Part shown: piece after piece, positions 1 to 20,000 of the stretch
Position numbering within the stretch: the first letter of the stretch is position 1
How the letters are laid out: every line of letters starts with the position of its first letter
Source: an uncultured virus (IMG/VR IMGVR_UViG_3300019885_000016)
Taxonomy: Duplodnaviria; Heunggongvirae; Uroviricota; Caudoviricetes
DNA: 20,000 nucleotides
Direction: 5' to 3' (one strand)
IMG/VR virus record: IMGVR_UViG_3300019885_000016
The notes under the pieces: model-generated
Told to the model about the DNA's origin: nothing
Seen by the model: the letters and a program-made list of their open reading frames with translations, nothing else
The model's database searches: none
Made by a program: the position numbers and the translations under genes

Positions 1-1695
1 CGAAGTGAAACCGGATACAGCATGCAGGTTGAACCCGTCGAAAGAGCAAGACACTTCCTTGATGTGGTTGAATACGGTCATATCTATTTAGACCAGGAAG
101 AAACTCTGCCTAACGGCAAGAAGTTGGAGGCAGGAAAACTACTTGGAGAGCATTTTCCCGAAGGCATGTACTTTAATTTTGTGGGAGATACGTTAGTAGA
201 AGTCGAGCCAGTGAAGAAGAGAAGGAAGTGGTCTCTGGTTCGATATGGGAAGAAGGCAGGTACACATCGAGGAACAGGGATGCAGATTGGTATTCCAATG
301 CAGGATGTCATTGACGACTCGTTTAATTTAACTTACGCCACCGGCATGACTGTCGGGCATCCGCTCACGATAGTTAATCGCAAGTTTGCGCCTGAATTGC
401 CGGATGCGAACAATATGCTATTCGTGAATAATTCGGAGGTGGATGTCAATAAGGTCGCTACAAGAATCTCAGGAGGAGCAGTGTCAAGTGTTGTGGATTC
501 CACTGCTGAACGTGTGGAAGGGGCGTTGCAGTTCATTCTTGGGACTCAGAGTGTCATTGGTACGGTCGGGGCACCGGACGCAAGGCAGGCGATGGGCACG
601 GCCACTGCCGTCACCGCGACGGTTGAAAACGCAGCGCTTCGGATGACTGGCCCCATCGGACAAAGAGTAGCGGCAGAGAAGGAATTGAGATTCCAGATTT
701 TAGAGAACATTAAGGAGCATTCAGCGCCTGAGCAAATCAAAGAGTTGGAGAGAAGATTCGGCCCCGACACGGTTGCGTCTTTTAGAAAGTGTGGCTTTCG
801 TCTTGACCTGACTATTAAAGTTGTGCCGAACACGGACAGACCACGCTCAATGGCTTTGACTCAATCTACTCTGATGGCGCTGGGTCAGATGGCTCCTGCG
901 CTGGCGAATGTTCCCTGGGGCGGGGAGTTACTGTCAATAATGGGAGATGTTGCCGGAATCCCCCTAGACATCGGCCCCGGTCGTGTTGATAGAAGAGAAG
1001 CCGAGTATCGTCTGAATAAGTTGTCGGCAATCGTCGAAAGAATCCAAGCAAAAGACTCTGCGTACTTGGCAAACTCAGAACAAGCGGCAGTAGAGATTTA
1101 CAACATGCTTGCCAGATTCTGCGGGCCGCTGATTCAGACGGAAAGTCCTGCTTCAATGTTCATGCAAGATCATCAATCTTTCATGGATGTTTATAAAGAC
1201 GCTCTTCTGGGAGAAGAGGCCAAGATGTGGCCGGATGCTCAGAAACTCGTAGTTATTCAATTATGGATGGATCACTTCAATGAGCAAATGACTGGCGAGG
1301 CTAAGAAGGCTGAGATGGCAAAAGAGGTGCAGGACAAGATTACGCCACCTCCACCGGAGCCTTCCCTGCCACAGAAGATTGCCGAAGGGCTGTCAATCAA
1401 ATACACCGACCTGGCGGCTGCTCCTTCACCTTTGCAGGCTCAGGTTCTGCAACTTGCTGGCTTGCAGGTCGAACCCGCGCAAGCGAGCGACCAGACAAGC
1501 AGCGACGGTCAGAATACGCTCGTACAGAGTGCTGTGGAGCATGAAGCAGGGGAAGAGTCTAAGGATACGGACGTAGAAAGACAGATGGCCTTGAATGAGC
1601 ACCAACACCACTTGGATGAAGAGGCCAAAGATAACCAGATGCACCGTGATTTAGCTAAGCAGGCGCACAGCGCACAGCAGAATGGAGGGGCATGA
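1..1695 (+). CDS. Phage portal protein (podovirus P22/T7-like), 5'-truncated by the window edge
   Basis: The frame is open from base 1, so the gene starts upstream. Portal-like segments are PMQDVIDDSFN and GTATAVTATVENAALRM...ELRFQILENIKEH, followed by a long Q/E/A-rich helical C-terminus. It lies upstream of the scaffold and capsid genes. Confidence 0.8.
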   Translation, partial: RSETGYSMQVEPVERARHFLDVVEYGHIYLDQEETLPNGKKLEAGKLLGEHFPEGMYFNFVGDTLVEVEPVKKRRKWSLVRYGKKAGTHRGTGMQIGIPMQDVIDDSFNLTYATGMTVGHPLTIVNRKFAPELPDANNMLFVNNSEVDVNKVATRISGGAVSSVVDSTAERVEGALQFILGTQSVIGTVGAPDARQAMGTATAVTATVENAALRMTGPIGQRVAAEKELRFQILENIKEHSAPEQIKELERRFGPDTVASFRKCGFRLDLTIKVVPNTDRPRSMALTQSTLMALGQMAPALANVPWGGELLSIMGDVAGIPLDIGPGRVDRREAEYRLNKLSAIVERIQAKDSAYLANSEQAAVEIYNMLARFCGPLIQTESPASMFMQDHQSFMDVYKDALLGEEAKMWPDAQKLVVIQLWMDHFNEQMTGEAKKAEMAKEVQDKITPPPPEPSLPQKIAEGLSIKYTDLAAAPSPLQAQVLQLAGLQVEPAQASDQTSSDGQNTLVQSAVEHEAGEESKDTDVERQMALNEHQHHLDEEAKDNQMHRDLAKQAHSAQQNGGA

Positions 1696-1982
1696 TGAAG
1701 GTCAGATTTGTAGGTGGCTCTTTAGATGGCGAAGAATGTGATTCGCCTGATGCAGGCTCGCCATTGCTTAACATCCCTGTGGCTCGGGCAGAGAAGATTA
1801 AGCCTGTGGACGAGGCATTGACCGATGCGGTAAGGAGTCTCAACGGGGAATATACATGCCCACACTATGACATTGAAAGTTATAGCTTAAATGGAAAAGA
1901 AGGCGATGCGCTGATTTATACCTACGCGCATACTCAACTATTCCTAGACCAAGAGGAGAATGGAGACGGAATCAATGAATAA
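1692..1982 (+). CDS. Small hypothetical phage protein (96 aa; N-terminal FVGGSLDG motif)
   Basis: ATGA overlap with the portal stop and GGAGGGG upstream. The xFxGGxxDG N-terminus is common in small phage proteins. Confidence 0.75.
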   Translation: MMKVRFVGGSLDGEECDSPDAGSPLLNIPVARAEKIKPVDEALTDAVRSLNGEYTCPHYDIESYSLNGKEGDALIYTYAHTQLFLDQEENGDGINE

Positions 1983-2211
1983 AAATAAATCTCGACTTTG
2001 GCAAATGCAATTTGGCGTTCCTCGTCCAACTGAGGCTGAGCCGGACAAGTGGGTTATGGAGTGGCGGAATGTAAGCGCGCCTTCTATGAAAGAAGCGATG
2101 GAAATTATTGAGCAGGAGTATGAAGGCGCATACTTTTTCGGAATAAATGAAAGAGGGACTATAGACTACGCATTCGCAGTAGCAGAGGGTGGCCCGATGC
2201 TTAGACACTGA
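1975..2211 (+). CDS. Small hypothetical protein (78 aa) whose C-terminus matches a major-capsid peptide
   Basis: The track ORF is 1960..2211. ATG 1975 is preferred because GGAG at 1962-1965 gives a normal SD spacing. It overlaps the previous stop and ends ...YAFAVAEGGPMLRH. Confidence 0.75.
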   Translation: MNKNKSRLWQMQFGVPRPTEAEPDKWVMEWRNVSAPSMKEAMEIIEQEYEGAYFFGINERGTIDYAFAVAEGGPMLRH

Positions 2212-2285
2212 TTGTATAGATGCTTGAAGAGAAGTAGATAACATGCACAAGGTTAAAACTGATGGGATGGCTATGAGAGGTAAAA

Positions 2286-2654
2286 ATGAGAATTCATCAT
2301 CTGCATGTGTGGGTTCGTCTTGGTGGGAATGGCGATAGTTTGATGTGTTCATCGTGCTCTGCTGGCATCCACAGAGCGCGGGATGGCAGTCATGGTTATG
2401 AGCTTTCGTCGACAGCATGTCGCAGGCTTACGGTTGAGCATGCACTTCAGTGTCTTGAACGAAAAGAGCGCCCCACAACCCAAGCGGCACTCAGGTTTGT
2501 AGAAGCGACGAAAGAGGCAATGAAGAAGGAACTAAGACACCGCGTTCATCTAGCAGGAAAGCCCCGCTATTCAAGAAATCTCCGGCGAGCCTTATTAGTG
2601 GTAGAGAAAAACATTTATCGTACCGACACACTTGGAAGGTATGTTTATTCTTAA
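2286..2654 (+). CDS. Hypothetical basic protein (122 aa) with CxxC and a further Cys, possibly Zn/nucleic-acid binding
   Basis: GAGAGGT precedes the ATG. Contains CSSC...HR...CRR and an R/K-rich C-terminal half. Confidence 0.65.
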   Translation: MRIHHLHVWVRLGGNGDSLMCSSCSAGIHRARDGSHGYELSSTACRRLTVEHALQCLERKERPTTQAALRFVEATKEAMKKELRHRVHLAGKPRYSRNLRRALLVVEKNIYRTDTLGRYVYS

Positions 2655-2666
2655 ACCGATAAAGGA

Positions 2667-2840
2667 ATGTCTAGCGTTCGGCATCTAAAAAAAGATAGCA
2701 TTCCACCACAAACTTGTAGTAAGATTAACTTGGTGGAAGAGGTTGACCGTCTGACCCGCGAGGTTCACACGGTTACACACCAACTCTCCACCATCACCAA
2801 GCGGCTTTTTGATTTGAAAGAACAGATCAAGAAGTCCTAA
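2667..2840 (+). CDS. Small coiled-coil hypothetical protein (57 aa; below the ORF-track cut-off)
   Basis: Translated by hand: MSSVRHLKKDSIPPQTCSKINLVEEVDRLTREVHTVTHQLSTITKRLFDLKEQIKKS*. The C-terminal half has a heptad pattern and the ORF fills the gap in the operon. The start codon is uncertain. Confidence 0.5.
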   Translation: MSSVRHLKKDSIPPQTCSKINLVEEVDRLTREVHTVTHQLSTITKRLFDLKEQIKKS

Positions 2841-2889
2841 CTTAATAGAGCTAAGTTCTTAAAAAGAACCCGCTCACCAACGGACTACT

Positions 2890-2954
2890 AAGCCCGCTGG
2901 CTACAGAGTCAAGTGACACGAGATGTCACCCGCTCTGAGGTCAGCGGGCTTTTT
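2890..2954 (+). promoter_or_regulatory. Long interrupted RNA hairpin with a T-tract directly upstream of the scaffold start (terminator/attenuator or translational control element)
   Basis: Nested stems are AAGCCCGCTGGCT/GGTCAGCGGGCTT, CAGAG/CTCTG and GTGACA-CGAGA-TGTCAC. TTTTT follows at 2950-2954 and the ATG is at 2960. Confidence 0.6.
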
Positions 2955-2959
2955 CGTTT

Positions 2960-4261
2960 ATGTCAACAAATTTAGAAACACCAGCCGAAGATTTCCTTTC
3001 TTCGGTCGCAGACTTCGGAATTGACTCTCAACCGGAAGAGGTTAGCCCTCTGCCAGCAAACGCCACCGAGGAAGCTGGCGACGCTGTGCAGAGCGAGCAG
3101 GCCAAAGGCGAAGAGCAGTTGGAAGTCGCAGCCACTGAGAGCGGGCAACCTCAAGAGGTCAAGGCAGAGCCGGTTAAGGCCGAAGAAGCTAAGATTGAAG
3201 AGAAGCCCGCAGAAGAGTCTCAAGAAGCTAAGGCTGCGAGACCTAGCTTCTGGGATCACTTCATCTCGTCACAGCCCATCGGGGAAATCCTCGACCACAT
3301 GCAGACACAATCCCCTTCCCGTTACGGCGAGATGGAGACGGAAGTCTTGGGTCGAAGGCTTGCAGACCCCGCTAAATTTGCTCTTTCGCACTACGAGCGA
3401 GACCCGGAAGGCTATGGCCGACAGTCTCTCGCTTACTACGAGGTGGCGAAGGATTTCTACCGCCAACAGGTCATAAAAGACAACCCTGACATTCAGGCCG
3501 CTCTCACCTTCCACGAAAAATATAAAGACAGTGTGAAGGAGGAGGACGACTTTGAATTGACCTCTGACATTGAAGAGGACATCCGCGCGCTCCACGACCC
3601 CGCAGTTGCCGAAAGGATGATTAAACGTCTGAAGGCAACGAGCGAGAAGAAGCCGGAAGAGCCTAAGACGGAGACGCCCAAGAGCGAGGAGGTCAAAAAG
3701 CCAGCAGCACAACCACCAGACGAAGCTATCCAAACAGAGATTAAGGCGACTCTGGACGCTGGCTACAACGAACTCTTCTTCTATCTCGGCTCAAAAGCGG
3801 ATGACCCCAAACAGTTAGGGTTGAAGGTCACACCGGAAGAGCGCGAGCGTGCGCCGGAAGTTGCCGACCTGAAGGACTTCAAGCGCCACGTTCTGTTCGA
3901 TGCTTACGGCGACCTTCCGGACTTCGAGCGGGGATTGTTTGAGTGGGCGAAGGAGAGGGATATCAATGGAGTCAAATTCATAGATGCCTTCGACGACTGG
4001 AAGAAGTTCGCAGTGGCGCGCGAGAAGCCGAACGCAATCGCAGCCGCGAAGAAGATGATTCCCTTCGCCGACCAGTACATGGGTGAACGGTTGAAGAACC
4101 CAATCTTTGCTCGGATAGACAAGCAGATTCAGGCGGCAATCCAGGCGGTAAATCCCACACAGAAAACAGAGAATTTCACTCCGGGGACACTCAAGACGGT
4201 CTCGCAGCCCGCAAGCCCCGAAACCGCCTTCTTTGATGAGGCGGCAAACTACGGACTTTAA
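2960..4261 (+). CDS. Putative capsid scaffolding protein (433 aa)
   Basis: Very acidic, low-complexity E/K/P/A N-terminus and a helical body. It lies immediately before the capsid gene. Confidence 0.6.
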   Translation: MSTNLETPAEDFLSSVADFGIDSQPEEVSPLPANATEEAGDAVQSEQAKGEEQLEVAATESGQPQEVKAEPVKAEEAKIEEKPAEESQEAKAARPSFWDHFISSQPIGEILDHMQTQSPSRYGEMETEVLGRRLADPAKFALSHYERDPEGYGRQSLAYYEVAKDFYRQQVIKDNPDIQAALTFHEKYKDSVKEEDDFELTSDIEEDIRALHDPAVAERMIKRLKATSEKKPEEPKTETPKSEEVKKPAAQPPDEAIQTEIKATLDAGYNELFFYLGSKADDPKQLGLKVTPEERERAPEVADLKDFKRHVLFDAYGDLPDFERGLFEWAKERDINGVKFIDAFDDWKKFAVAREKPNAIAAAKKMIPFADQYMGERLKNPIFARIDKQIQAAIQAVNPTQKTENFTPGTLKTVSQPASPETAFFDEAANYGL

Positions 4262-4270
4262 GGAGACATC

Positions 4271-5623
4271 ATGGCTTCCTCAATCACGACTACTACGATT
4301 AACGGCATCCTTCCGAAGCTAATCGAGAAGGGCAGAAACCTACAGGTGGCTCAATCCCGCTTCTTTCAGGAGATGGAGAAGGTCAAGAAGATTAACAAGA
4401 TTAACCCCGGCGGACTCTACACACCGTACCAGACGGGTGAGAACAACATGGCCTTCGCCGTCGCTGAAGGCGGGCCGATTCTATCAGGCGGAGCGCCCTC
4501 TTATGCAATGGGCGTTACACAGTTGAGGCAGCACTGGGCTTCGATTGCATGGACTGGAGCGCTTGAGAGAATCAAGAACGAATTTCTCACTGAAGTCGCG
4601 CAGGACTCCCGGTATGCGGGCGAGGGCATGCCGAAGCTAATGCAGCGCGCCGGAAATATGGCCGTTGGCGCAGTCATCTACTCAGCCCTGAAGATGTACG
4701 CAAGGCGTGAAAATTTCTTTGCATTGCAGGGCACTGATAAGAGTGCGATAGGCATCATCACTGGGTTACCGGGCGGCAACGTCATCCAGTGTTCGTGGGA
4801 CTCTACGAATCAAGGAAACCGTCTATTCGATGCTGACCAGCAGGTGCAAATCTTCTCCCCCGGTGGAGTACAGAGAACCACAGGATTAGCCACAGTAGGC
4901 TCATCCCTCTACAACACGGTTCTGAGTGTTGATAAGACTCCCGCTTCGGGAGACACCGGGCCGGTAACCTTCTCGGAAGCACCTCCTTCAAATGCGGACG
5001 TTGGCGATACCGTTGTGTTCCGCAACTCCTACGGGCTGATGCCACAGGGCTTCATCCATTACGTGGATGATACGGGAACGTTCAAAGGAATCACTCGCTC
5101 GACGAACCCGGCGATCTTCAATTCCGTCATTACTAGACTGTCAGGCTCGCCCACAATCAGCCCGGCTCATATACGTGAACAATTATCACAGATGGAGTCG
5201 AAGGCTGGCTACGGAGTTCCTTTGAACCTGCAAATCTGGTGGTCGAAGACCCAGGAGTTCAACTGGGAGAGTCAGTTGTACACGACTCCGTTTGTTCGAC
5301 AGGTGGACGCTTCCAAAGTCGGACGAGTTGATCTGGCTCCGGGTGAAAGTTACTGGGATGGTCACAAGTTTATGGGTGACCAGGATGTTCCTCCCGGCCA
5401 TGTTGATTTCATCAACATGCTTAGTTGGAGAAAGGTCACACAGACTCCACTTCAGCCTTACGAGTTTGACGGCGGTAGTTATGTCGTGAACCCGATCAAC
5501 TCTTATGGAGAGAGACTAGACCAGCGACAGTCAACCGTCTTCAGCGAGTACAACTGGGACTGCGACGACCCGCGAACAAATGGACGTATCGAGGGCGCAG
5601 CATTTAATCGGATCCATGTGTGA
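4271..5623 (+). CDS. Major capsid protein, HK97 fold (450 aa)
   Basis: Strong SD AAGGAG. It has an E-loop-type AFAVAEGGP segment, a backbone helix ending RRENFFALQG, a beta-rich insertion, PQGFIHYVDD and a C-terminal CDDPRTNGRIEG strand. It follows the scaffold gene. Confidence 0.85.
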   Translation: MASSITTTTINGILPKLIEKGRNLQVAQSRFFQEMEKVKKINKINPGGLYTPYQTGENNMAFAVAEGGPILSGGAPSYAMGVTQLRQHWASIAWTGALERIKNEFLTEVAQDSRYAGEGMPKLMQRAGNMAVGAVIYSALKMYARRENFFALQGTDKSAIGIITGLPGGNVIQCSWDSTNQGNRLFDADQQVQIFSPGGVQRTTGLATVGSSLYNTVLSVDKTPASGDTGPVTFSEAPPSNADVGDTVVFRNSYGLMPQGFIHYVDDTGTFKGITRSTNPAIFNSVITRLSGSPTISPAHIREQLSQMESKAGYGVPLNLQIWWSKTQEFNWESQLYTTPFVRQVDASKVGRVDLAPGESYWDGHKFMGDQDVPPGHVDFINMLSWRKVTQTPLQPYEFDGGSYVVNPINSYGERLDQRQSTVFSEYNWDCDDPRTNGRIEGAAFNRIHV

Positions 5624-5675
5624 TTTTAACCGAAAAGGGTTCACGTCTAAGCGGGGCACAACATTTGGGCGAGAA

Positions 5676-5701
5676 GGGGGCGGTAGCTGTGCGCCGCCCC
5701 T
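5676..5701 (+). terminator. GC-rich hairpin after the capsid gene (possible leaky terminator or mRNA-stabilising stem)
   Basis: GGGGGCGG-TAGCTGTGCG-CCGCCCCT. Only a weak T-tract (ACCTTTG) follows. Confidence 0.45.
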
Positions 5702-5715
5702 ACCTTTGAGAAGCA

Positions 5716-6480
5716 ATGGCAACTCTTGAAGAAAAACAGAGTTATTACGAGTACGGGCGGGAGCGTGTGTTCAAACTACCTCCGCGCCTCGACCCTGTGA
5801 TTGAGAAAGAGCTTTTACGGTTCGGGCGCGACGAGAACGGCGACCCGCTATGGCGATTTTGCTGGGGTGGTGCTTGCATCATTCGCAGTAGTCCAAGCGC
5901 GCCGTGGGGAACTATTCGCGGAAATCTTGATGCCACGCGAGTAGATAAAGGCCGTTTGGTTCTTCGCTATCTCGACCCTCCAAAGATGATGTCACCTATT
6001 GCTCTCTGTTTTAAGCAGGGCAAGAAGATTAAGAGGGTAAAGCGGGAATCGGACGTGCCGAAAGGCGCTATGTCTTGGTGGGAGTACGAGTACACGGACT
6101 TCGGCCATCTCCGATGGTTTCTGGAAAGAAAACTGACAGCCGCGCAACTGGTCGAAGCGAAAGTCTTCTTACCGGACGACCCTTATCTTCCCAGACAAGG
6201 CGAGTACATCTCGATAATGGATCGGCCCATTGAAACGCCAGACGGGAAATACTTTGAGCCGACAATGGCCTATCTGGAAGTCATCGCAGAGCACCTTGTT
6301 GAAGAGCAGACCGAATCCATGCGCGACCTGCTCACAAAGTACAGAGAGAAGCGAGAAAAAAGAGAACAGGACGTGGAGCACGAAAAAGACAAACGTGAAT
6401 TTCTTGATGTGGTTGATATGGTCTCTCAGGTAATGCGCGAGCCTGTCAATCCAACCTATTCGATACCGGAGAATTTATGA
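5716..6480 (+). CDS. Hypothetical phage protein (254 aa)
   Basis: Long ORF in the operon, with W/Y-rich motifs (PLWRFCWG, RWFLER, PRQGEY). Its stop overlaps the next ATG (ATGA). Confidence 0.8.
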   Translation: MATLEEKQSYYEYGRERVFKLPPRLDPVIEKELLRFGRDENGDPLWRFCWGGACIIRSSPSAPWGTIRGNLDATRVDKGRLVLRYLDPPKMMSPIALCFKQGKKIKRVKRESDVPKGAMSWWEYEYTDFGHLRWFLERKLTAAQLVEAKVFLPDDPYLPRQGEYISIMDRPIETPDGKYFEPTMAYLEVIAEHLVEEQTESMRDLLTKYREKREKREQDVEHEKDKREFLDVVDMVSQVMREPVNPTYSIPENL

Positions 6481-7499
6481 GTTCAATCGCAGAGATTATC
6501 AGCAATCGTGAGGGCGTTAACGCATCCTTTTTAGATGAAGCGATGCGAAGAGTTGAGGCTATAAAAGCTGTCCTCTTTGTCTGGCATCCGTACATGCCGC
6601 TCAACAACTTGGGCGCAGACACCTTTCGCTTCAACTACCCTCGTCCCGTATTGCACCGACTTGAACCGCTTCCAGTTACGACCGTTGAGCGAGCCGACAT
6701 TCATTCACGGGGAAGAAACTCTCTCGGCATGACCGGGGTTTCTAACTTTCGCGGTACGGGCGCATCTCTTGAGGGCGATGTGCTGGGAGCGGGAGGCTTT
6801 GTCCCTTCAGGTCAGGGCGCAATCGTCAAGCAGGAGCAGCAGCGACCCGCAGAGACCGTGATTGACATATTACAGGCATGGTCGAAAGTCGGCATGGTGG
6901 AGCTTCAGTCTCTGGCAGCGTCTGACGAGAACGAATTGATTCTTTCCTACAAGTTGTACGACGTAATATTCAAGGAGGCAGAGACAGAGGAGCATCTGGA
7001 GATTGGCAGACGCCCCGTTAGTCTAGTGCTTGAAGACTACCCTTTATGGCTGGAACGCTCTGCGCCTCGTGTCCTTGAGCACGCTCTTAGAAGCGGTCTT
7101 CCTGCCACACTGGAGAAAAAGGGAGAGCGCCTCATCGCGGAGGCTTCGCAAGGCGTGGCTCGCGCTCATGTGTTCGTGCTTGACCCTGAGAATGGAATTC
7201 TCCCCAAGACCAGAAAAGGCTTGCAGGTAGCCAAGCAGGGTGGATTGGAAGGAAAGACTCACCTTGACCGTCAGGACATGTGGTGTCTTGAGCAGTTTCC
7301 ATCGTTCCAGGTGAACCCGGACGCCGAAAGAGCGGAGAGGGCACTTGCAGCAACGATTGAGAAGGGCAGCGAGTCGGCTGAAAGTACGAATGCGGGACTC
7401 TTGGCAATCGTCGAGCAGAACCAGACGGTCATTGGGATGCTGGCCGAGCAGCAACGCCAGACCAACGAACTCATTCAACAGGTCAGTAAGAGAAAGTAA
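6477..7499 (+). CDS. Hypothetical phage protein (340 aa), C-terminal coiled coil
   Basis: ATGA coupling to the upstream gene, GGAG SD and a Q-rich helical C-terminus. Confidence 0.8.
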   Translation: MSSIAEIISNREGVNASFLDEAMRRVEAIKAVLFVWHPYMPLNNLGADTFRFNYPRPVLHRLEPLPVTTVERADIHSRGRNSLGMTGVSNFRGTGASLEGDVLGAGGFVPSGQGAIVKQEQQRPAETVIDILQAWSKVGMVELQSLAASDENELILSYKLYDVIFKEAETEEHLEIGRRPVSLVLEDYPLWLERSAPRVLEHALRSGLPATLEKKGERLIAEASQGVARAHVFVLDPENGILPKTRKGLQVAKQGGLEGKTHLDRQDMWCLEQFPSFQVNPDAERAERALAATIEKGSESAESTNAGLLAIVEQNQTVIGMLAEQQRQTNELIQQVSKRK

Positions 7500-7515
7500 A
7501 ACAAAGGAGGAAGAG

Positions 7516-8073
7516 ATGGGTGAACACATTGTTATCGAATTGGGCGAGAAGGTTAAGCTCAAAGGCACGGACGCGGAAGACGGCGACCGCTTCCACATTA
7601 CGGGTGGGGCGGCCATTGCCGATTCCTCTCAAGACCTTGCGGGCAAGTCAATAGAACTCGTAGGCGCGCAACTCGGTCGCACACACGTCTCCTACGGGCC
7701 TGACCTTTCTGAAACACTTACGGGCGAAGAGAAGTTCGCAGGGCGCGGCGCAACCCGCTCATCACACGACGAGTGGGATATTGAAGTAGTTCCGAAGGGG
7801 GCTAAGAAAGAGGGCACGCAGGCCGCGCCTGATTCGCCCCTGGCCTCTTCAAATGTTCACGAAGGGCTTCTGCCGATGAGTGAAGTACAGGAAGAGCCAT
7901 CTGAAAAGACTCCCTACGGGATGGATCAAGAGAACAAGCCTGTTGCTCCTCATCCCAGTATGACTGCCGGTGGAGCACATAACGTGGCGAAGCAGAGCGA
8001 GGATGCTGAAGCCACTGGCCCGACTGTGCCCGTCGCGGACGAGAAGAAGAGGGGCAAGAAGAAAAGAAAGTAA
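7516..8073 (+). CDS. Hypothetical protein (185 aa): small beta-rich N-terminal domain, disordered acidic linker, basic tail
   Basis: Start moved from 7345 to ATG 7516, which follows AAGGAGG. The N-terminal ~90 aa have a beta-strand pattern (IELVGAQLGRTHVSY). Ends KKRGKKKRK. Confidence 0.75.
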   Translation: MGEHIVIELGEKVKLKGTDAEDGDRFHITGGAAIADSSQDLAGKSIELVGAQLGRTHVSYGPDLSETLTGEEKFAGRGATRSSHDEWDIEVVPKGAKKEGTQAAPDSPLASSNVHEGLLPMSEVQEEPSEKTPYGMDQENKPVAPHPSMTAGGAHNVAKQSEDAEATGPTVPVADEKKRGKKKRK

Positions 8074-8076
8074 GTA

Positions 8077-8823
8077 ATGCCTGACACGATGCTACAGGTT
8101 GTGGCGGGAGTCCGCACGCTGCTTCGGCGTCCGAGTGAACAGAAACTGCCCACTCAGGACATCCGCGAACGTGCGGACGACTGCCTTCGTGCTTTGGTTC
8201 AGGAAGCCCAGCTAGAAGGCAGAGACCAGCGCACCGTAGTCACAGACGTTACTCTTTCTCCTGACACCATAGATTACACGATTGATCTGGACGTTTCGGA
8301 CTTTGAGCCTGTCCGTTTAGAGAGGGGATTGAACTATCCCAACATCGGTCAGGCGTGGACGGAAGTGGCTCTGGTTCCCTTTAACGCATGGGAGAAGCAT
8401 TTCAATCAAGATTACGTCGCCGGAGCGATCTACGGCGGGGAAGACGGCAGGACGAGAATAAAGCTGAACCTTGATTCAACCGAGTTTGGATTAAGCTACT
8501 GGCGGCTCTCCTACAGACCCTCTCTCCTGACGATTTTACAGCTAGGCGATAGACCTCCTTTGCCAGCACATTTCGTGCCGATGCTAAAGCTTGGCACGGC
8601 CACAGGGTGTATTCCGATTGTCCGGGATGACTCGGCGGAATGGATAGCGTGGGCTGCTACGACCCTTCCGCAGTACGCCCTTGAGTTTGCTTCATGGCGC
8701 GAGAGGTGGAAGGACTATTTGAATCATTCATTAGAGCCTAACACCGTTCCTATAAGACCGTTCAATGGCTTTCGTAGAGGTAATCGCAGGCGATTGAGAG
8801 CCTATTTGCCGATTGGAAGTTAG
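8077..8823 (+). CDS. Putative head-tail adaptor/ring protein 1 (248 aa)
   Basis: The pattern helix (MLQVVAGVRTLL), helix, beta insert (IDYTID), then PPLPAHFVPMLKLG plus helices is typical of podovirus adaptors. Its position between capsid and nozzle fits. Confidence 0.55.
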   Translation: MPDTMLQVVAGVRTLLRRPSEQKLPTQDIRERADDCLRALVQEAQLEGRDQRTVVTDVTLSPDTIDYTIDLDVSDFEPVRLERGLNYPNIGQAWTEVALVPFNAWEKHFNQDYVAGAIYGGEDGRTRIKLNLDSTEFGLSYWRLSYRPSLLTILQLGDRPPLPAHFVPMLKLGTATGCIPIVRDDSAEWIAWAATTLPQYALEFASWRERWKDYLNHSLEPNTVPIRPFNGFRRGNRRRLRAYLPIGS

Positions 8824-9540
8824 ATGGCGTACGCTGACCCCACAAGGATGTACAACCACATTCTTGACATCTTGAACGCAGCCGCCGAAGGCGCGTGGGG
8901 TGGAGATGTCTCTGACGGGCGAAGGTCGCAGGATGCCATTGAAAACGCAAGAATTCAGTCGGGCATGGAAGTCTTACGCGCCATCTCAATGAATCCTGAG
9001 AACGGTCATTACGGCGCGCTTGTTCAAGATATTGCTGTAGAGCATAACACACAGATTCCAGACCATGACGGGGAGACAGGCATTCCAAAGATAGTTCCCT
9101 TTGACGGAAGCGCTGCAAGAGAGGGAATCCCGGCAGACCCGGACGAGATTGATTCTTACCGCAACGATACGCTGGGGCTTTATTCGGCGGCATTGGATGG
9201 CACATCGGTTCTACACGACCAGCCGGATCAGAACAATCTGCCATCGCCCGTTTCTTTGAAATATTCGATTGTCGCGGGAAGGTTCAAGTTCACCGGACTC
9301 TCAGCAGTCATTCCCATGATCCAGTTAACCCGTGAGATGGCCGATGCGCAGATTCCAGAAAACTATGAGCCAACGGTGGTCAAGCTTTCAATCGCCAAAA
9401 CGGTTAAAGAAGGCGATAACCTCTATCAATATGCTCAGGCATACGCACAGGCTGGACAACAGGATTTGATGCAGATAATGAGCGGGGCGCTACAGGTTAG
9501 CCCCGTTCCAGAGATAGCAATGGCTCAGAAAAACCTCTAA
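8824..9540 (+). CDS. Putative adaptor/ring-like virion protein 2 (238 aa)
   Basis: Abuts the previous gene. It has N-terminal helices and a C-terminal IPENYEPTVVKLSIAK helix motif analogous to adaptor 1. Confidence 0.45.
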   Translation: MAYADPTRMYNHILDILNAAAEGAWGGDVSDGRRSQDAIENARIQSGMEVLRAISMNPENGHYGALVQDIAVEHNTQIPDHDGETGIPKIVPFDGSAAREGIPADPDEIDSYRNDTLGLYSAALDGTSVLHDQPDQNNLPSPVSLKYSIVAGRFKFTGLSAVIPMIQLTREMADAQIPENYEPTVVKLSIAKTVKEGDNLYQYAQAYAQAGQQDLMQIMSGALQVSPVPEIAMAQKNL

Positions 9541-9552
9541 GGAGATTTTACA

Positions 9553-10569
9553 ATGAACAGATACGCTCGCGCCCTCGCGCCTCTACTTTCTATCACCATA
9601 TTGCTCTCGACGCTCATCACAGTCTCGGCGTCTGGAAGTAAAACCATCGTCGCTAAATTCCCGACTACTTCAGCGATGAAGCTGGTTGACTCAGACCCTT
9701 CAATCACGAGTGTTCTGGTAGTCAACAATGGGTCGGTCACGGTCTATCTCGGAAACAGTTCATCCGTGACGGCTGCGGCATCGGCTTCGACAGACGGCAT
9801 CCCTCTTTATGTAAACAATTACATCGTCTTCAACGACGTGACGGATGCTCTGTACGGCATAACCTCTTCAGGTACTGGGAACCTGAGAATCACCACAACA
9901 AAGGGGGGAGGCCGGATAGAGAGCGGGCGATTGCAGACCTCTGGTATATCCAATGGAGCGGCTGCCAACACAATCCCGATGTCGAACGGCTCTGACCTCG
10001 TTGCCAGCAACGCTTTGGTCTACAACCTGTCAACAGCAATCACGCCTAATTCGACCACGACAAGCACGGCTGCGGGCACGCTTGCTATGACTTCAAACGC
10101 TACGGGGCGCGGGTCAATCTTCCGCTCCGACGGGACTAACTGGCAACTACTGTCGAACTATTCAGATGGTGCTTTCCAGAGTGAATCAGCCACCATAGCC
10201 ACAACAGGCAACACGGATACCTATGTCATTGCCCCCTACGCGGCTACCGTGACAGGGGTGGACTTTTCAGGTGTGGATGCTCTCTCTGCGAGTGACACCA
10301 ATTACATCACATTCTCCATTACTAATTTGGGACAGGCTGGCTCAGGCTCAAACCCCATCTTGGCGGCCACCGCTGCAAATACCACTCAGGCGACGGGCGG
10401 AACAGCCATCTCTGCCAACACGAAACGAAGTCTTACCTTAAACGGTACGGGGTCAAATCTGGTTGTCGCAGCAGGTGATCGTCTGAGGGTCAGGTATGCG
10501 GTAACAGGCACACTGGGAAACACTGTTACTTACGCGAAGATCATCATTCGCTTCACGCGCCTGTCGTAA
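9553..10569 (+). CDS. Ser/Thr-rich fibre/decoration-like beta protein with N-terminal signal peptide (338 aa)
   Basis: SD AAGGAG. The N-terminus is MNRYAR, a hydrophobic core, then VSA|S. It has the fibre-type motif IFRSDGTNW and a C-terminal jelly-roll-like domain (VAAGDRLRVRY). Confidence 0.65.
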   Translation: MNRYARALAPLLSITILLSTLITVSASGSKTIVAKFPTTSAMKLVDSDPSITSVLVVNNGSVTVYLGNSSSVTAAASASTDGIPLYVNNYIVFNDVTDALYGITSSGTGNLRITTTKGGGRIESGRLQTSGISNGAAANTIPMSNGSDLVASNALVYNLSTAITPNSTTTSTAAGTLAMTSNATGRGSIFRSDGTNWQLLSNYSDGAFQSESATIATTGNTDTYVIAPYAATVTGVDFSGVDALSASDTNYITFSITNLGQAGSGSNPILAATAANTTQATGGTAISANTKRSLTLNGTGSNLVVAAGDRLRVRYAVTGTLGNTVTYAKIIIRFTRLS

Positions 10570-17626: not shown

Positions 17627-19072
17627 ATGCGAAGTTTTTTAAGCATTCTGTTTATTCTTACCTTCTTCACCTTTGGCATGGCGCAGGATTCATCTATTAC
17701 TGCTCGTAAGGTCGTTGTAGGCGTGACCAATTCAAGCTCTACAGGCACAACTGTAAATCGCCTTGCGAAACTGTCCGGCGCTCCAAGTAAAGCTTTAATA
17801 GCCGCCACAACAGATACGGATGGGGTGATAGGCATAATCGTTGCTGGCGCTGGCACATCCGGTATAGCGACTATTCAGACTGAAGGAATAGCCCCGTGTG
17901 CGTTCGATGGCGCTACTACAGCTAATGACTACGTAGGCATCAGTTCAAGCACGGCAGGGAAGTGTCACGATGCAGGTAGTTCTTATCCAACGAGCGGGCA
18001 GGTCGTAGGCAGGGTGCTTTCTACCAATGGCAGCGCAGGAACTTATAGCGTGCTGCTTGGGGCAGGGTATTCCACTGTTCCGTGCGCAACGTGTGTTACA
18101 TCTGCATCCTCGTCGACAGCCAACCGCCTTATGGTCGGGGCTGGTTCTCAAGCATCTACTGTTCTAGGCTCTCTTGGAACTACTACAACGGTATTACATG
18201 GCAATGCGAGTGGAGCACCAACTTTCGGGGCGGTTAGCCTATCAACAGACGTGACGGGCAATCTCCCTGTTACAAACAATACCGTCTCAGTCTTAGATGG
18301 CTCAGTCGCCTATTGTGCAGATGCGGGTGCTAGTGACGCTTACGCCTGCTCGCTCTCTCCTGCCCCCGCCTCATACGTGACAGGCGCAAGGTATCGCTTC
18401 AAAGCTAATACAGCCAATACAGGTGCAGCAACAATCAATCTTAATTCTCTTGGCGCTAAAGCCATCAAGAAAGCGGCAGGAGGCATCACTACAGATTTAG
18501 CGGATAATGATATTCGCGTCGGTCAGGTTGTTGATTTAGTGTACGACGGCACGAATATGCAGATGCAGTCTACGCTTGGCAACGCGGGTAGTGGGCTGGC
18601 TTCCATCAATGGCGACTCGACGGCGGCACAAGTTATCGCGGCAGGGAACGGAATATCAATAACAGACGCAGGCGCAACGCATACAATTGCAGTAACAGGC
18701 GAGCATCTTCTATCCACTACCACAGTTAATACAAACGTGGGAACTAAGCAGGCTCTTTACACTGTACCTGTAGGAAAGCATTGTATTGTTACTAAGATTG
18801 TAGTGAGAAGTGTGAGCGCAAGTCTTGGCGCAATGAGCGATGCACTCAGTTTCGGCTTTGACGTTGACGCAGGGGATTTCAACGCACCTCTTAACTCTAC
18901 TGCGTTATCAACCTTAACAGACAACACACTTGCTCTCACTCTCCACAACGATGCTGAGATTACGCTTTCGCCAGTTAAGATAGGTAGTGCTGGCAATGTC
19001 TTTGGCTGCTTTTTCAACGACACCTCTATAACCGCAACAGTAGTTATTGACGTGTTCGGCTACCTCTACTAG
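17627..19072 (+). CDS. Mosaic tail-fibre-like protein with N-terminal signal peptide, 481 aa
   Basis: Start moved to ATG 17627 (GAGGT SD). The leader is MRSFLSILFILTFFTFGMA|Q. Fibre modules include FKANTANTGAATINLNSLGAKAIKK...LVYDGTN and LYTVPVGK. Confidence 0.75.
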   Translation: MRSFLSILFILTFFTFGMAQDSSITARKVVVGVTNSSSTGTTVNRLAKLSGAPSKALIAATTDTDGVIGIIVAGAGTSGIATIQTEGIAPCAFDGATTANDYVGISSSTAGKCHDAGSSYPTSGQVVGRVLSTNGSAGTYSVLLGAGYSTVPCATCVTSASSSTANRLMVGAGSQASTVLGSLGTTTTVLHGNASGAPTFGAVSLSTDVTGNLPVTNNTVSVLDGSVAYCADAGASDAYACSLSPAPASYVTGARYRFKANTANTGAATINLNSLGAKAIKKAAGGITTDLADNDIRVGQVVDLVYDGTNMQMQSTLGNAGSGLASINGDSTAAQVIAAGNGISITDAGATHTIAVTGEHLLSTTTVNTNVGTKQALYTVPVGKHCIVTKIVVRSVSASLGAMSDALSFGFDVDAGDFNAPLNSTALSTLTDNTLALTLHNDAEITLSPVKIGSAGNVFGCFFNDTSITATVVIDVFGYLY

Positions 19073-19076
19073 AGAT

Positions 19077-19104
19077 TTGAGCAGTTTGTTTGCATAACGC
19101 TCAA
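19077..19104. terminator. Imperfect hairpin between convergent transcription units (possible terminator)
   Basis: TTGAGC...GCTCAA inverted repeat starting 4 nt after the fibre stop. No strong T-tract on the + strand. Confidence 0.3.
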
Positions 19105-19134
19105 TTCAGCCACAAAACAATAACTAGAAAAGGG

Positions 19135-19302
19135 CTACTTTAGACGCCAGCTTGAAAGCGCTGGCGCTGATGCTGCGGATTCATCCCCCGCATGAATGCG
19201 GCGGTCTTCTCCGAAGTTTTGATAAAACATATTTGTTGATTCACGGATGAGGATACAACGGTATTTCTCTCCATTGGGGTGAGTGTAGATAAGTTCTTGC
19301 AT
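19135..19302 (-). CDS. Small hypothetical protein (55 aa; below the ORF-track cut-off)
   Basis: Translated by hand: MQELIYTHPNGEKYRCILIRESTNMFYQNFGEDRRIHAGDESAASAPALSSWRLK*. It starts 5 nt after the J-domain gene stop and has no clear SD. Confidence 0.4.
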   Translation of the reverse strand: MQELIYTHPNGEKYRCILIRESTNMFYQNFGEDRRIHAGDESAASAPALSSWRLK

Positions 19303-19307
19303 AGAAG

Positions 19308-20000
19308 TCAGTGCGCACCAGCATGATGTTGGCGTAAGACTTTAATGGCAGCGTTCACGCTCGACATAGATGCCACGCTTCCGCCCAAATCAGGATGAGT
19401 CTTTCGAGCAGCAGCCTTGAATGCCGTCTCTGTCTCAGCCGAACTGTTCAATAAAGTATCCGCCGTCCAACCGCCCTCTGCGCAGGCCGCAATCACATTG
19501 GCAGCCGCTTCGGGCGTCAACTTGCCGGTTTGATTCCCGGTCTGAGCTTCAACCTTCTTATGCTTGAATCCTGCGTAATGCTGGTCGCGCGTTTCAATCC
19601 CAACTCCATACTTCTTAGTCTCACGAATGGATTTCAGAGTAAGAGCGATTGCGCGTAGATTGTCTTCCCAATGATCGAACGTCGAACAGGGAAACTCCAG
19701 CAGGTCATAAACTCCCAATGGTTGATTCTGAGCATTCTTTTGGCCTGTGGGACGCCACTTCTCAAAGGTGAGGCACACACCTGCAAATCTAGGTGTGCGG
19801 GCGTTCACGCGCGGGAGTCCGTCAAAGCGAATATCTTCTCCGCGATGCCCTGTCTGCAAAGCTGGATTTCTAGCGTTGATTCTATCCAACTCGGATTTCA
19901 GTAAATCAACCGTCTTTGGGTATGAAGCGCGAAACGGTGCGCGCCTTGCGCTAGTACCACCGTAAGGCCATCGGTCTATCGTCTCAAACTTAAAGTCCAT
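19308..20000 (-). CDS. Phage protein with C-terminal DnaJ J-domain (HPD motif), 230 aa
   Basis: The J-domain helix II-HPD-helix III is AFKAAARKTHPDLGGSVASMSSVNAAIKVL. The N-terminal domain has DGLPR...FPCSTFDHWEDNLRAIALTL...YGV. The ATG is exactly at the window edge. Confidence 0.85.
   Translation of the reverse strand: MDFKFETIDRWPYGGTSARRAPFRASYPKTVDLLKSELDRINARNPALQTGHRGEDIRFDGLPRVNARTPRFAGVCLTFEKWRPTGQKNAQNQPLGVYDLLEFPCSTFDHWEDNLRAIALTLKSIRETKKYGVGIETRDQHYAGFKHKKVEAQTGNQTGKLTPEAAANVIAACAEGGWTADTLLNSSAETETAFKAAARKTHPDLGGSVASMSSVNAAIKVLRQHHAGAH

Follow-up and report, generated by a model that had tools for sequence, protein, structure and literature searches.

A small accessory protein of an uncultured soil phage ends in a probable copy of the phage's own capsid E-loop segment, a candidate decoy for a host capsid sensor

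The 78-aa accessory protein encoded in the window (the whole stretch of 20,000 nucleotides that was analysed, which is a prophage of an uncultured soil phage whose family is Acidobacteria-associated) carries at its C-terminus the peptide AFAVAEGGP, also found in the major capsid protein (MCP) of the same phage. The favoured explanation is that the E-loop segment of this phage's MCP was copied long ago onto a small accessory domain, and that the resulting tail would have been maintained at the protein level and selected as a non-activating decoy for a host capsid sensor (probability of about 0.4). This explanation starts from three direct observations: the identical peptide sequence, the divergence at silent sites and a second occurrence of the segment, on an unrelated protein. 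The E-loop copy is probably selected, the support being one independent recurrence on a homologue of the anti-Thoeris sponge Tad1 and two other carriers of MCP pieces. Selected mimicry of some kind, which adds docking or modulation of assembly to the decoy, is judged fairly likely. The weak points of this verdict are that the copy is not conserved among orthologues and that binding is predicted only. The features compared are the following.

1975..2211, + strand: 78-aa accessory gene, an open reading frame (ORF) encoding a beta-hairpin/helix/strand domain (about residues 7-67) and a loose tail.
2170..2202, + strand: C-terminal copy of the MCP E-loop segment, residues 66-76 of the 78-aa protein, 10/11 identical, followed by two residues and the stop codon.
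4271..5623, + strand: MCP, HK97 fold, 450 aa (Foldseek, VIA).
4451..4483, + strand: source segment (MCP residues 61-71); strands 50-56 and 77-94 flank its loop, which by topology is the E-loop.

The translations of both places agree with the original prediction: the tail at 2170-2196 is identical to MCP residues 61-69 (4451-4477) over nine residues, and the match continues as M/I, then L, i.e. 10 identical residues out of 11. Coordinates, peptide and codons were all given correctly, seven of the nine codons differing synonymously. The tail and the segment of its own MCP have 20/27 bases and 2/9 codons in common. A recent duplication of the phage's own MCP gene, already rejected in the original prediction, is ruled out by this low number of identical bases. 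An assembly echo is likewise excluded, as had been claimed, by the differing codons and by agreeing contigs: those from two runs of one soil sample are letter-identical to the window at both places and show neither read-through nor a joint (they are possibly the source of the window and hence not independent).

The HK97 fold attributed to the MCP is confirmed by its AF2 model (pLDDT 85), which matches the SU10 capsid in Foldseek (E 6e-10). The VIA comparisons give Z 19.6 with 7f38_A (rmsd 5.0, 286 aligned) and Z 14.1 with HK97 1ohg_A (rmsd 3.9, 236 aligned). The claimed location of the segment in the E-loop is probable: its residues lie in the hairpin loop expected for the E-loop, the basis being topology and motif and not a residue-level superposition. 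In the model, the stretch that joins strands 50-56 and 77-94 (residues 57-76) is a loop preceding a long helix and is read as the E-loop. The MCP of 80alpha has a matching motif around W84, this residue being at the place of A63 by motif only; W84 is placed in the E-loop of that protein in the available part of the report (PMC12578639). V64, E66 and G68 are invariant in 60 aligned MCP homologues. The same nine residues are found in 17 of these 60 MCPs, i.e. the segment is conserved in the family. Because of this conservation, co-variation of the copies with the cognate MCP is not demonstrable: each of the two copies (the tail and the one on Tad1) fits no other MCP better than its own (17 and 7 of the 60 MCPs tie), and tracking of the own MCP is consistent with the data but unproven.

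The MCP search gave 65 matches, including the MCP itself, among 8000 scored candidates. The relatives are found in Acidobacteriota/Pyrinomonadaceae MAGs and in metagenome and viral contigs; a class-wide search gave MCP matches in 4/401 genomes. No match was found in INPHARED or, at the sequence level, in the PDB. A distant MCP in G046 has no copy of its own segment within the surrounding 40 kb.

The 78-aa ORF is preceded by GGAG (1962-1965), nine bases upstream, and its start overlaps the stop of the preceding gene; an alternative start at 1960 would give 83 aa. The model of the protein (pLDDT 72.6 overall) is folded from residue 7 to 67, residues 67-78 being below 50. According to the model and to the homologue alignment, A66-F67, the first residues of the match, belong to the last strand of the protein's own domain. 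The protein forms a singleton cluster and has one true homologue, P0068 (65 aa, E 4.4e-7 over residues 6-64), whose alignment covers the domain and ends where the tail begins. The tail is considered an add-on because P0068 stops before it and because the model leaves residues 67-78 below pLDDT 50. It thus has the features of a terminal tag (short, disordered, outside the folded domain). Conservation of the tag across cargo orthologues fails, the copy being present in 0/1 homologue of the small protein and in 1/3 syntenic Tad1 genes; homologues lacking the tail had been named beforehand as evidence against the prediction, and the sole homologue found, P0068, lacks it.

Searches with the 78-aa protein among proteins of near length retrieved only itself, and those with the two-row alignment only itself and P0068. 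No homologue was found in IMG/VR and no match in Pfam or NCBIfam; no RNA holder is listed. Two weak matches (E 0.06-0.08) are found in 5 genomes. P0067 and P0069, two of the 4 rows in the search that gave P0068 at E 4.4e-7, were rejected as homologues (repeat-driven matches in large secreted proteins). The best VIA match of the small domain is 2qsd_A (Z 5.1, rmsd 2.7, 59 aligned), followed by eL20-like chains (Z 4-4.6); BFVD has nothing at or below E 0.001, and Atlas scores are under 0.9. No function is assigned from these comparisons of a modelled fold.

The gene lies in a variable accessory slot with the following neighbours.

22..1695, + strand: probable portal gene, labelled from gene order only; left border of the slot.
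1692..1982, + strand: accessory gene of 96 aa; its stop and the start codon of the 78-aa gene overlap, and a homologue is found in the same interval of L013.
2960..4261, + strand: probable scaffold gene, labelled from gene order only; right border of the slot.

A portal-position gene is kept upstream of the MCP gene in 8/15 related loci, and a scaffold-position gene directly upstream of it in 11/15. Neither the gene at 22..1695 nor that at 2960..4261 has a match in Pfam, PHROG or NCBIfam. The interval between portal and scaffold is variable, and the 78-aa gene is present in none of the eight related loci that have the full interval. With this absence (8/8 loci) and its singleton cluster, it is an accessory, patchily distributed gene, like anti-defence genes of the DSAD1 type. 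A 57-aa gene of the same interval (2667-2840) has a C-terminal half that is near-identical in L002 and L011 and a variable N-terminal part. Several hairpins and a terminator-like site (2929-2956, + strand) are found at 2860-2960, directly before the scaffold-like gene; this region is possibly a regulatory leader separating the portal/accessory unit from the head genes.

The second carrier was found by comparing each MCP with its neighbour genes for the longest shared word. It is located on L015, a part of G404, which is a complete 68,170-bp phage with terminal repeats whose MCP is 67% identical to that of the window.

L015 1612-2070: Tad1 homologue, the gene directly after the MCP gene, starting 84 bases after it, with a strong ribosome site.

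The presence of an MCP-segment copy on an accessory protein, as proposed for the window, is therefore recurrent: in a sister phage, an unrelated protein has the same segment at one terminus. Homology of the Tad1 core is established (phmmer E 3.4e-19 to 8kbb_A, seven PDB sequences matched), Pfam PF24729 giving only E 0.02, below its cut-off. The gene probably encodes an anti-Thoeris sponge, with gcADPR/cyclic-nucleotide binding predicted from homology. The core begins at residue 26, which corresponds to the start of two cultured-phage homologues. The N-terminal extension before it includes FEVAEGGPLISGS, to be compared with FAVAEGGPILSGS in the MCP of the same phage (10/13 residues identical; 25/39 bases; 3 codons common among the 10 identical residues). 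A degenerate VAEGG-type pattern has exactly two occurrences in the G404 genome. At the position that matches W84 of 80alpha, the copy has a Glu, which is found there in 0/60 MCPs. Tad1 occupies the slot after the MCP gene in 3/12 loci and carries the copy in one of the three. The E-loop copy is thus patchy since two syntenic Tad1 orthologues lack it; these (L012 11456-11887 and L009 463-864) have different extensions in the same slot. A scan of close relatives with the L015 Tad1 retrieved only itself. The 78-aa protein shows no Tad1 homology, and a tblastn search of the window with the L015 Tad1 was negative.

Comparison of the MCP profile with all 4592 ORFs detected two further small genes with MCP pieces.

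L036 1498-1707, minus strand: G002 prophage; 69-aa ORF that starts with RRSFL and contains the MCP N-arm as a diverged copy (profile 2-34, iE 5.6e-6).
L010 566-943: 125-aa ORF after the MCP gene; its N-terminal part is rich in Cys/His and is followed by a stretch similar to MCP 388-426 (iE 6e-4).

The RRSFL start is presumably export-signal-like. The ORF that carries it lies just upstream of a terminase-small-subunit-like gene (label from reading). In the same search, the two E-loop copies rank third and fourth and are not significant alone (iE 0.93 and 1.6; best reversed decoy, 1.4). In pairwise tests within own genomes, the three best MCP matches (69, 68 and 64, the last being that of Tad1) each fall at one end of a small gene; controls with the reversed MCP score 50 at best. 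The seven other core genes reach at most 59, one domain shared in G003 aside, with reversed controls up to 60.

The steps of the decoy reading would be as follows. The 78-aa gene would be made together with the head genes. Its loose tail would display the E-loop motif on its own, free of the remaining capsid fold. The tail would then fill the E-loop-reading site of a putative host sensor, most plausibly of the TIR/Thoeris type, without activating it. Such a trigger decoy would be gained and lost lineage by lineage, as with other anti-defence add-ons. Any E-loop binder should also bind the copy, the two candidates being a host sensor or the MCP itself. In staphylococcal Thoeris, the available part of the report indicates that binding of ThsB1 to the MCP needs the E-loop and is abolished by W84K, and that the P-loop mutant V273A of the phage MCP still binds, without activation (PMC12578639). 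Because binding needs the E-loop and a P-loop mutant binds without activating, a ligand limited to the E-loop would have the shape of a non-activating competitor. The anti-Thoeris sponge as second carrier and the patchy distribution point the same way, towards a sensor decoy. The variable slot and the reading of the MCP through short motifs by Lit and CapRel (10.64898/2026.01.04.697583) also count in favour of the decoy.

Several points stand against the decoy. P0068 and two of the three syntenic Tad1 genes lack the copy, and the Tad1 copy has its Glu at the position matching W84. A loose 11-13-mer would have to compete with a very abundant MCP. Avs7-type sensors are described as wrapping the whole MCP fold (10.64898/2026.01.04.697583); they would be unaffected by a peptide because they read the whole fold. 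ThsB_TIR (PF08937) matches are found in 57/121 genomes of the family of G001 (three of the 57 are marked unpublished), which is an unspecific context and not evidence of a sensor. A wider version holds that the family repeatedly grafts short selected copies of its own capsid contact arms onto unrelated accessory proteins, the E-loop copy being a transferable decoy that blocks capsid-reading TIR sensors without triggering them and the Tad1 fusion, in one phage, blocking both the sensing step and the signal of Thoeris; this version is rather doubtful.

Mimicry of a trigger and tagging of a capsid are kinds already known; an E-loop copy on an accessory protein or on Tad1 would be a new form. Encapsulin cargo-loading peptides and the T4 capsid-targeting sequence are short terminal tags that direct unrelated proteins to an HK97-fold shell; they differ from the tail of the window in that they are not copies of the shell protein and act on the inside. 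Lit/Gol and CapRel sense regions of the MCP other than the E-loop segment. They are alike in that short MCP motifs can suffice for recognition and differ in that the available part of the source describes no stand-alone phage copies (10.64898/2026.01.04.697583). Staphylococcal Thoeris (ThsB1/ThsB2) is alike in its first binding step, which needs the E-loop at the copied motif, and in the binding without activation of V273A; it differs in that it is on the host's side, in an unrelated host group, and no phage-encoded E-loop decoy is described in the part of the report available (PMC12578639). DSAD1/DSR2 is alike in that a phage accessory protein competes with a structural trigger (the tail tube) for the sensor cavity; the available text describes competition and no sequence copy of the trigger, which is a tail and not a capsid protein (PMC11263360). 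Tad1 sponges, including gp184 of phiKZ, are alike in that the second carrier is a Tad1 with an N-terminal extension and that the N-terminal part of gp184 sits in the capsid; they differ in that the 78-aa protein is not a Tad1 and that the anchor of gp184 binds the inner surface and is not described as an MCP copy in the accessible parts of the sources (10.1101/2025.11.23.690004; PMC11297242). In listings of the open-access literature, no copy of an own capsid loop on an unrelated protein was found, which does not prove absence.

Should the tail act as a decoy, the sequence alone would mark the capsid part read by a host sensor and would give a route to that sensor and to a peptide inhibitor; fused to Tad1, the copy would counter Thoeris at two steps. 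As a docking tag, it would offer a short handle, derived from the phage itself, by which proteins could be attached to HK97-type shells. Such genes could be recognised in genomes by searching for copies of own capsid segments.

The best surviving alternative, possible and less probable than the decoy, is a selected copy whose partner is the MCP: the tail would dock in the P-domain pocket for the neighbour's E-loop, and the protein would ride on or in the heads, or would slow or tune assembly. Both carriers lie within the head module, other small genes copy other MCP pieces (the N-arm in G002, 388-426 in L010), and many Tad1 homologues of Bacillus phages are annotated 'structural protein'; PDB entry 8y6v is presumably the phiKZ capsid. 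In P22, each neighbouring subunit offers a pocket into which the E-loop pegs (10.1101/626804). According to two sources, the Tad1 of phiKZ (gp184) belongs to the minor capsid proteins; its N-terminus is held wedged in the shell, the C-terminal part being injected (10.1101/2025.11.23.690004; PMC11297242). However, the E-loop sites are peripheral and are filled in a closed shell, which suits neither an internal cargo nor a stable decoration, and a free competitor would risk poisoning assembly. The N-arm copy of G002, placed after what is presumably an export-signal-like start, is hard to square with docking in heads. The complex prediction of the MCP (60-row alignment) with the 78-aa protein gave a score of 0.00 in both runs, with controls not folded, and counts neither for nor against binding.

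A neutral relic is improbable. It supposes that fragments of MCP genes, either the phage's own or those of a co-infecting relative, are occasionally recombined onto gene ends and tolerated without function. This would agree with the patchy presence of the copy and with four different small genes having three different MCP pieces. It would also agree with the position of the Tad1 gene, 84 bases after the MCP gene, and with its first residues (SE..T), which lengthen the match on the upstream side across a gap of two residues, something to be expected of a sequence descended from MCP DNA. However, neutral decay that changed 7/9 third positions would also hit first and second positions, and all 18 of these are intact in the tail segment relative to the MCP. 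Two captures on one 13-residue segment out of 450 residues are unlikely without selection, and no sampled MCP gene is closer to the tail than 22/27 bases. Codons are common at 0.44-0.49 of the identical residues between MCP orthologues, compared with 2/9 and 3/10 for the copies, and the four A-ending Ala/Val codons of the tail have a probability of 0.002 or less under each of 13 MCP genes. This low codon sharing appears to fit age and selection over a fresh capture; an old capture then selection, or convergence under selection, would fit best. A recent capture from an unsampled AT-richer relative may also be considered.

Chance or structural convergence, i.e. a strand ending in a common hydrophobic-A-E-G turn and surfaced by the size of the scan, is likewise improbable. 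The scoring against shuffled proteomes that had been proposed (22 window proteins) gave a shared word of at least nine residues in 2/3000 shuffles: the match is rare for one window, and this rarity is not decisive alone. The analytic expectation of a shared 9-mer is 1.2e-7 for this pair, 2.8e-5 for the MCP and any other protein and 3.5e-4 for any pair. If about 250,000 windows are scanned, simple arithmetic allows for up to about 90 shared 9-mers by chance, so the single match needed outside support and is not decisive by itself. Chance is also favoured by the common residues of which the peptide is made, by A66-F67 being in the domain's own last strand and by the reversed controls of other core genes (59-60), which come near the 64 of the Tad1 match. 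FAVAEGGP is found in 14 stretches of IMG/VR, of which one is an MCP, two are in frame in long proteins and 11 are in short or shadow frames.

Against chance, the segment set beforehand is found again in a sister phage, at the end of a protein, where 0.003-0.05 is expected (expected counts for the 9-mer: 0.053 in all six-frame ORFs, 0.018 in the greedy gene set and 0.0034 in the 25 residues next to gene ends). Moreover, the three best matches of MCPs to own genes (69, 68 and 64) are terminal in small genes and all exceed the reversed MCP control (50). The profile of MCP 61-73, searched over 411,286 non-MCP residues (the non-MCP ORFs of the window and of 433 kb from 15 related records), matches only the window tail (25.9 bits) and the Tad1 extension (20.0 bits), the next match being at 6.5, and 60 shuffles of this search gave zero matches at 18 bits or more. 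Since the 13-residue profile windows were picked after the Tad1 case was known, the pre-set figures are those of the 9-mer alone. The control over all 437 MCP windows gave a portal motif matching MCP 219-231 at 27 bits, which was rejected as an MCP copy and is most likely due to chance since one shared motif recurs in the portals of several loci.

L011 6031-6252, the first small gene after the portal there, was rejected as a carrier: its VAEGG is in the middle of the protein and below the profile threshold. A second pattern scan of IMG/VR gave 12 stretches, with no carrier besides the MCP and Tad1 of G404. The two proteins with FAVAEGGP in frame (L025 and L028) have 1,000 aa, are presumably tail-tip-like and belong to unrelated phages; an independent origin of the motif is thus possible.

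The core gene at 6477-7499 has, in residues 239-256, NGILPK like MCP 10-15, then KG and LQVA as in the MCP N-arm. The motif G-[IV]-L-x-x-T is kept in 8 orthologues, and the 6-mer is at chance level; profile comparison of this gene with the MCP gave nothing (probability 0.2). In G003 (L046-L047, joined positions 22256-28076), two structural genes, homologues of those at 8824 and 11217 of the window, share an inserted repeated domain. Positions 1-10000 of the window have no match in G001, an 88%-complete genome, and positions 18275-20000 are 100% identical to the start of its contig C71.
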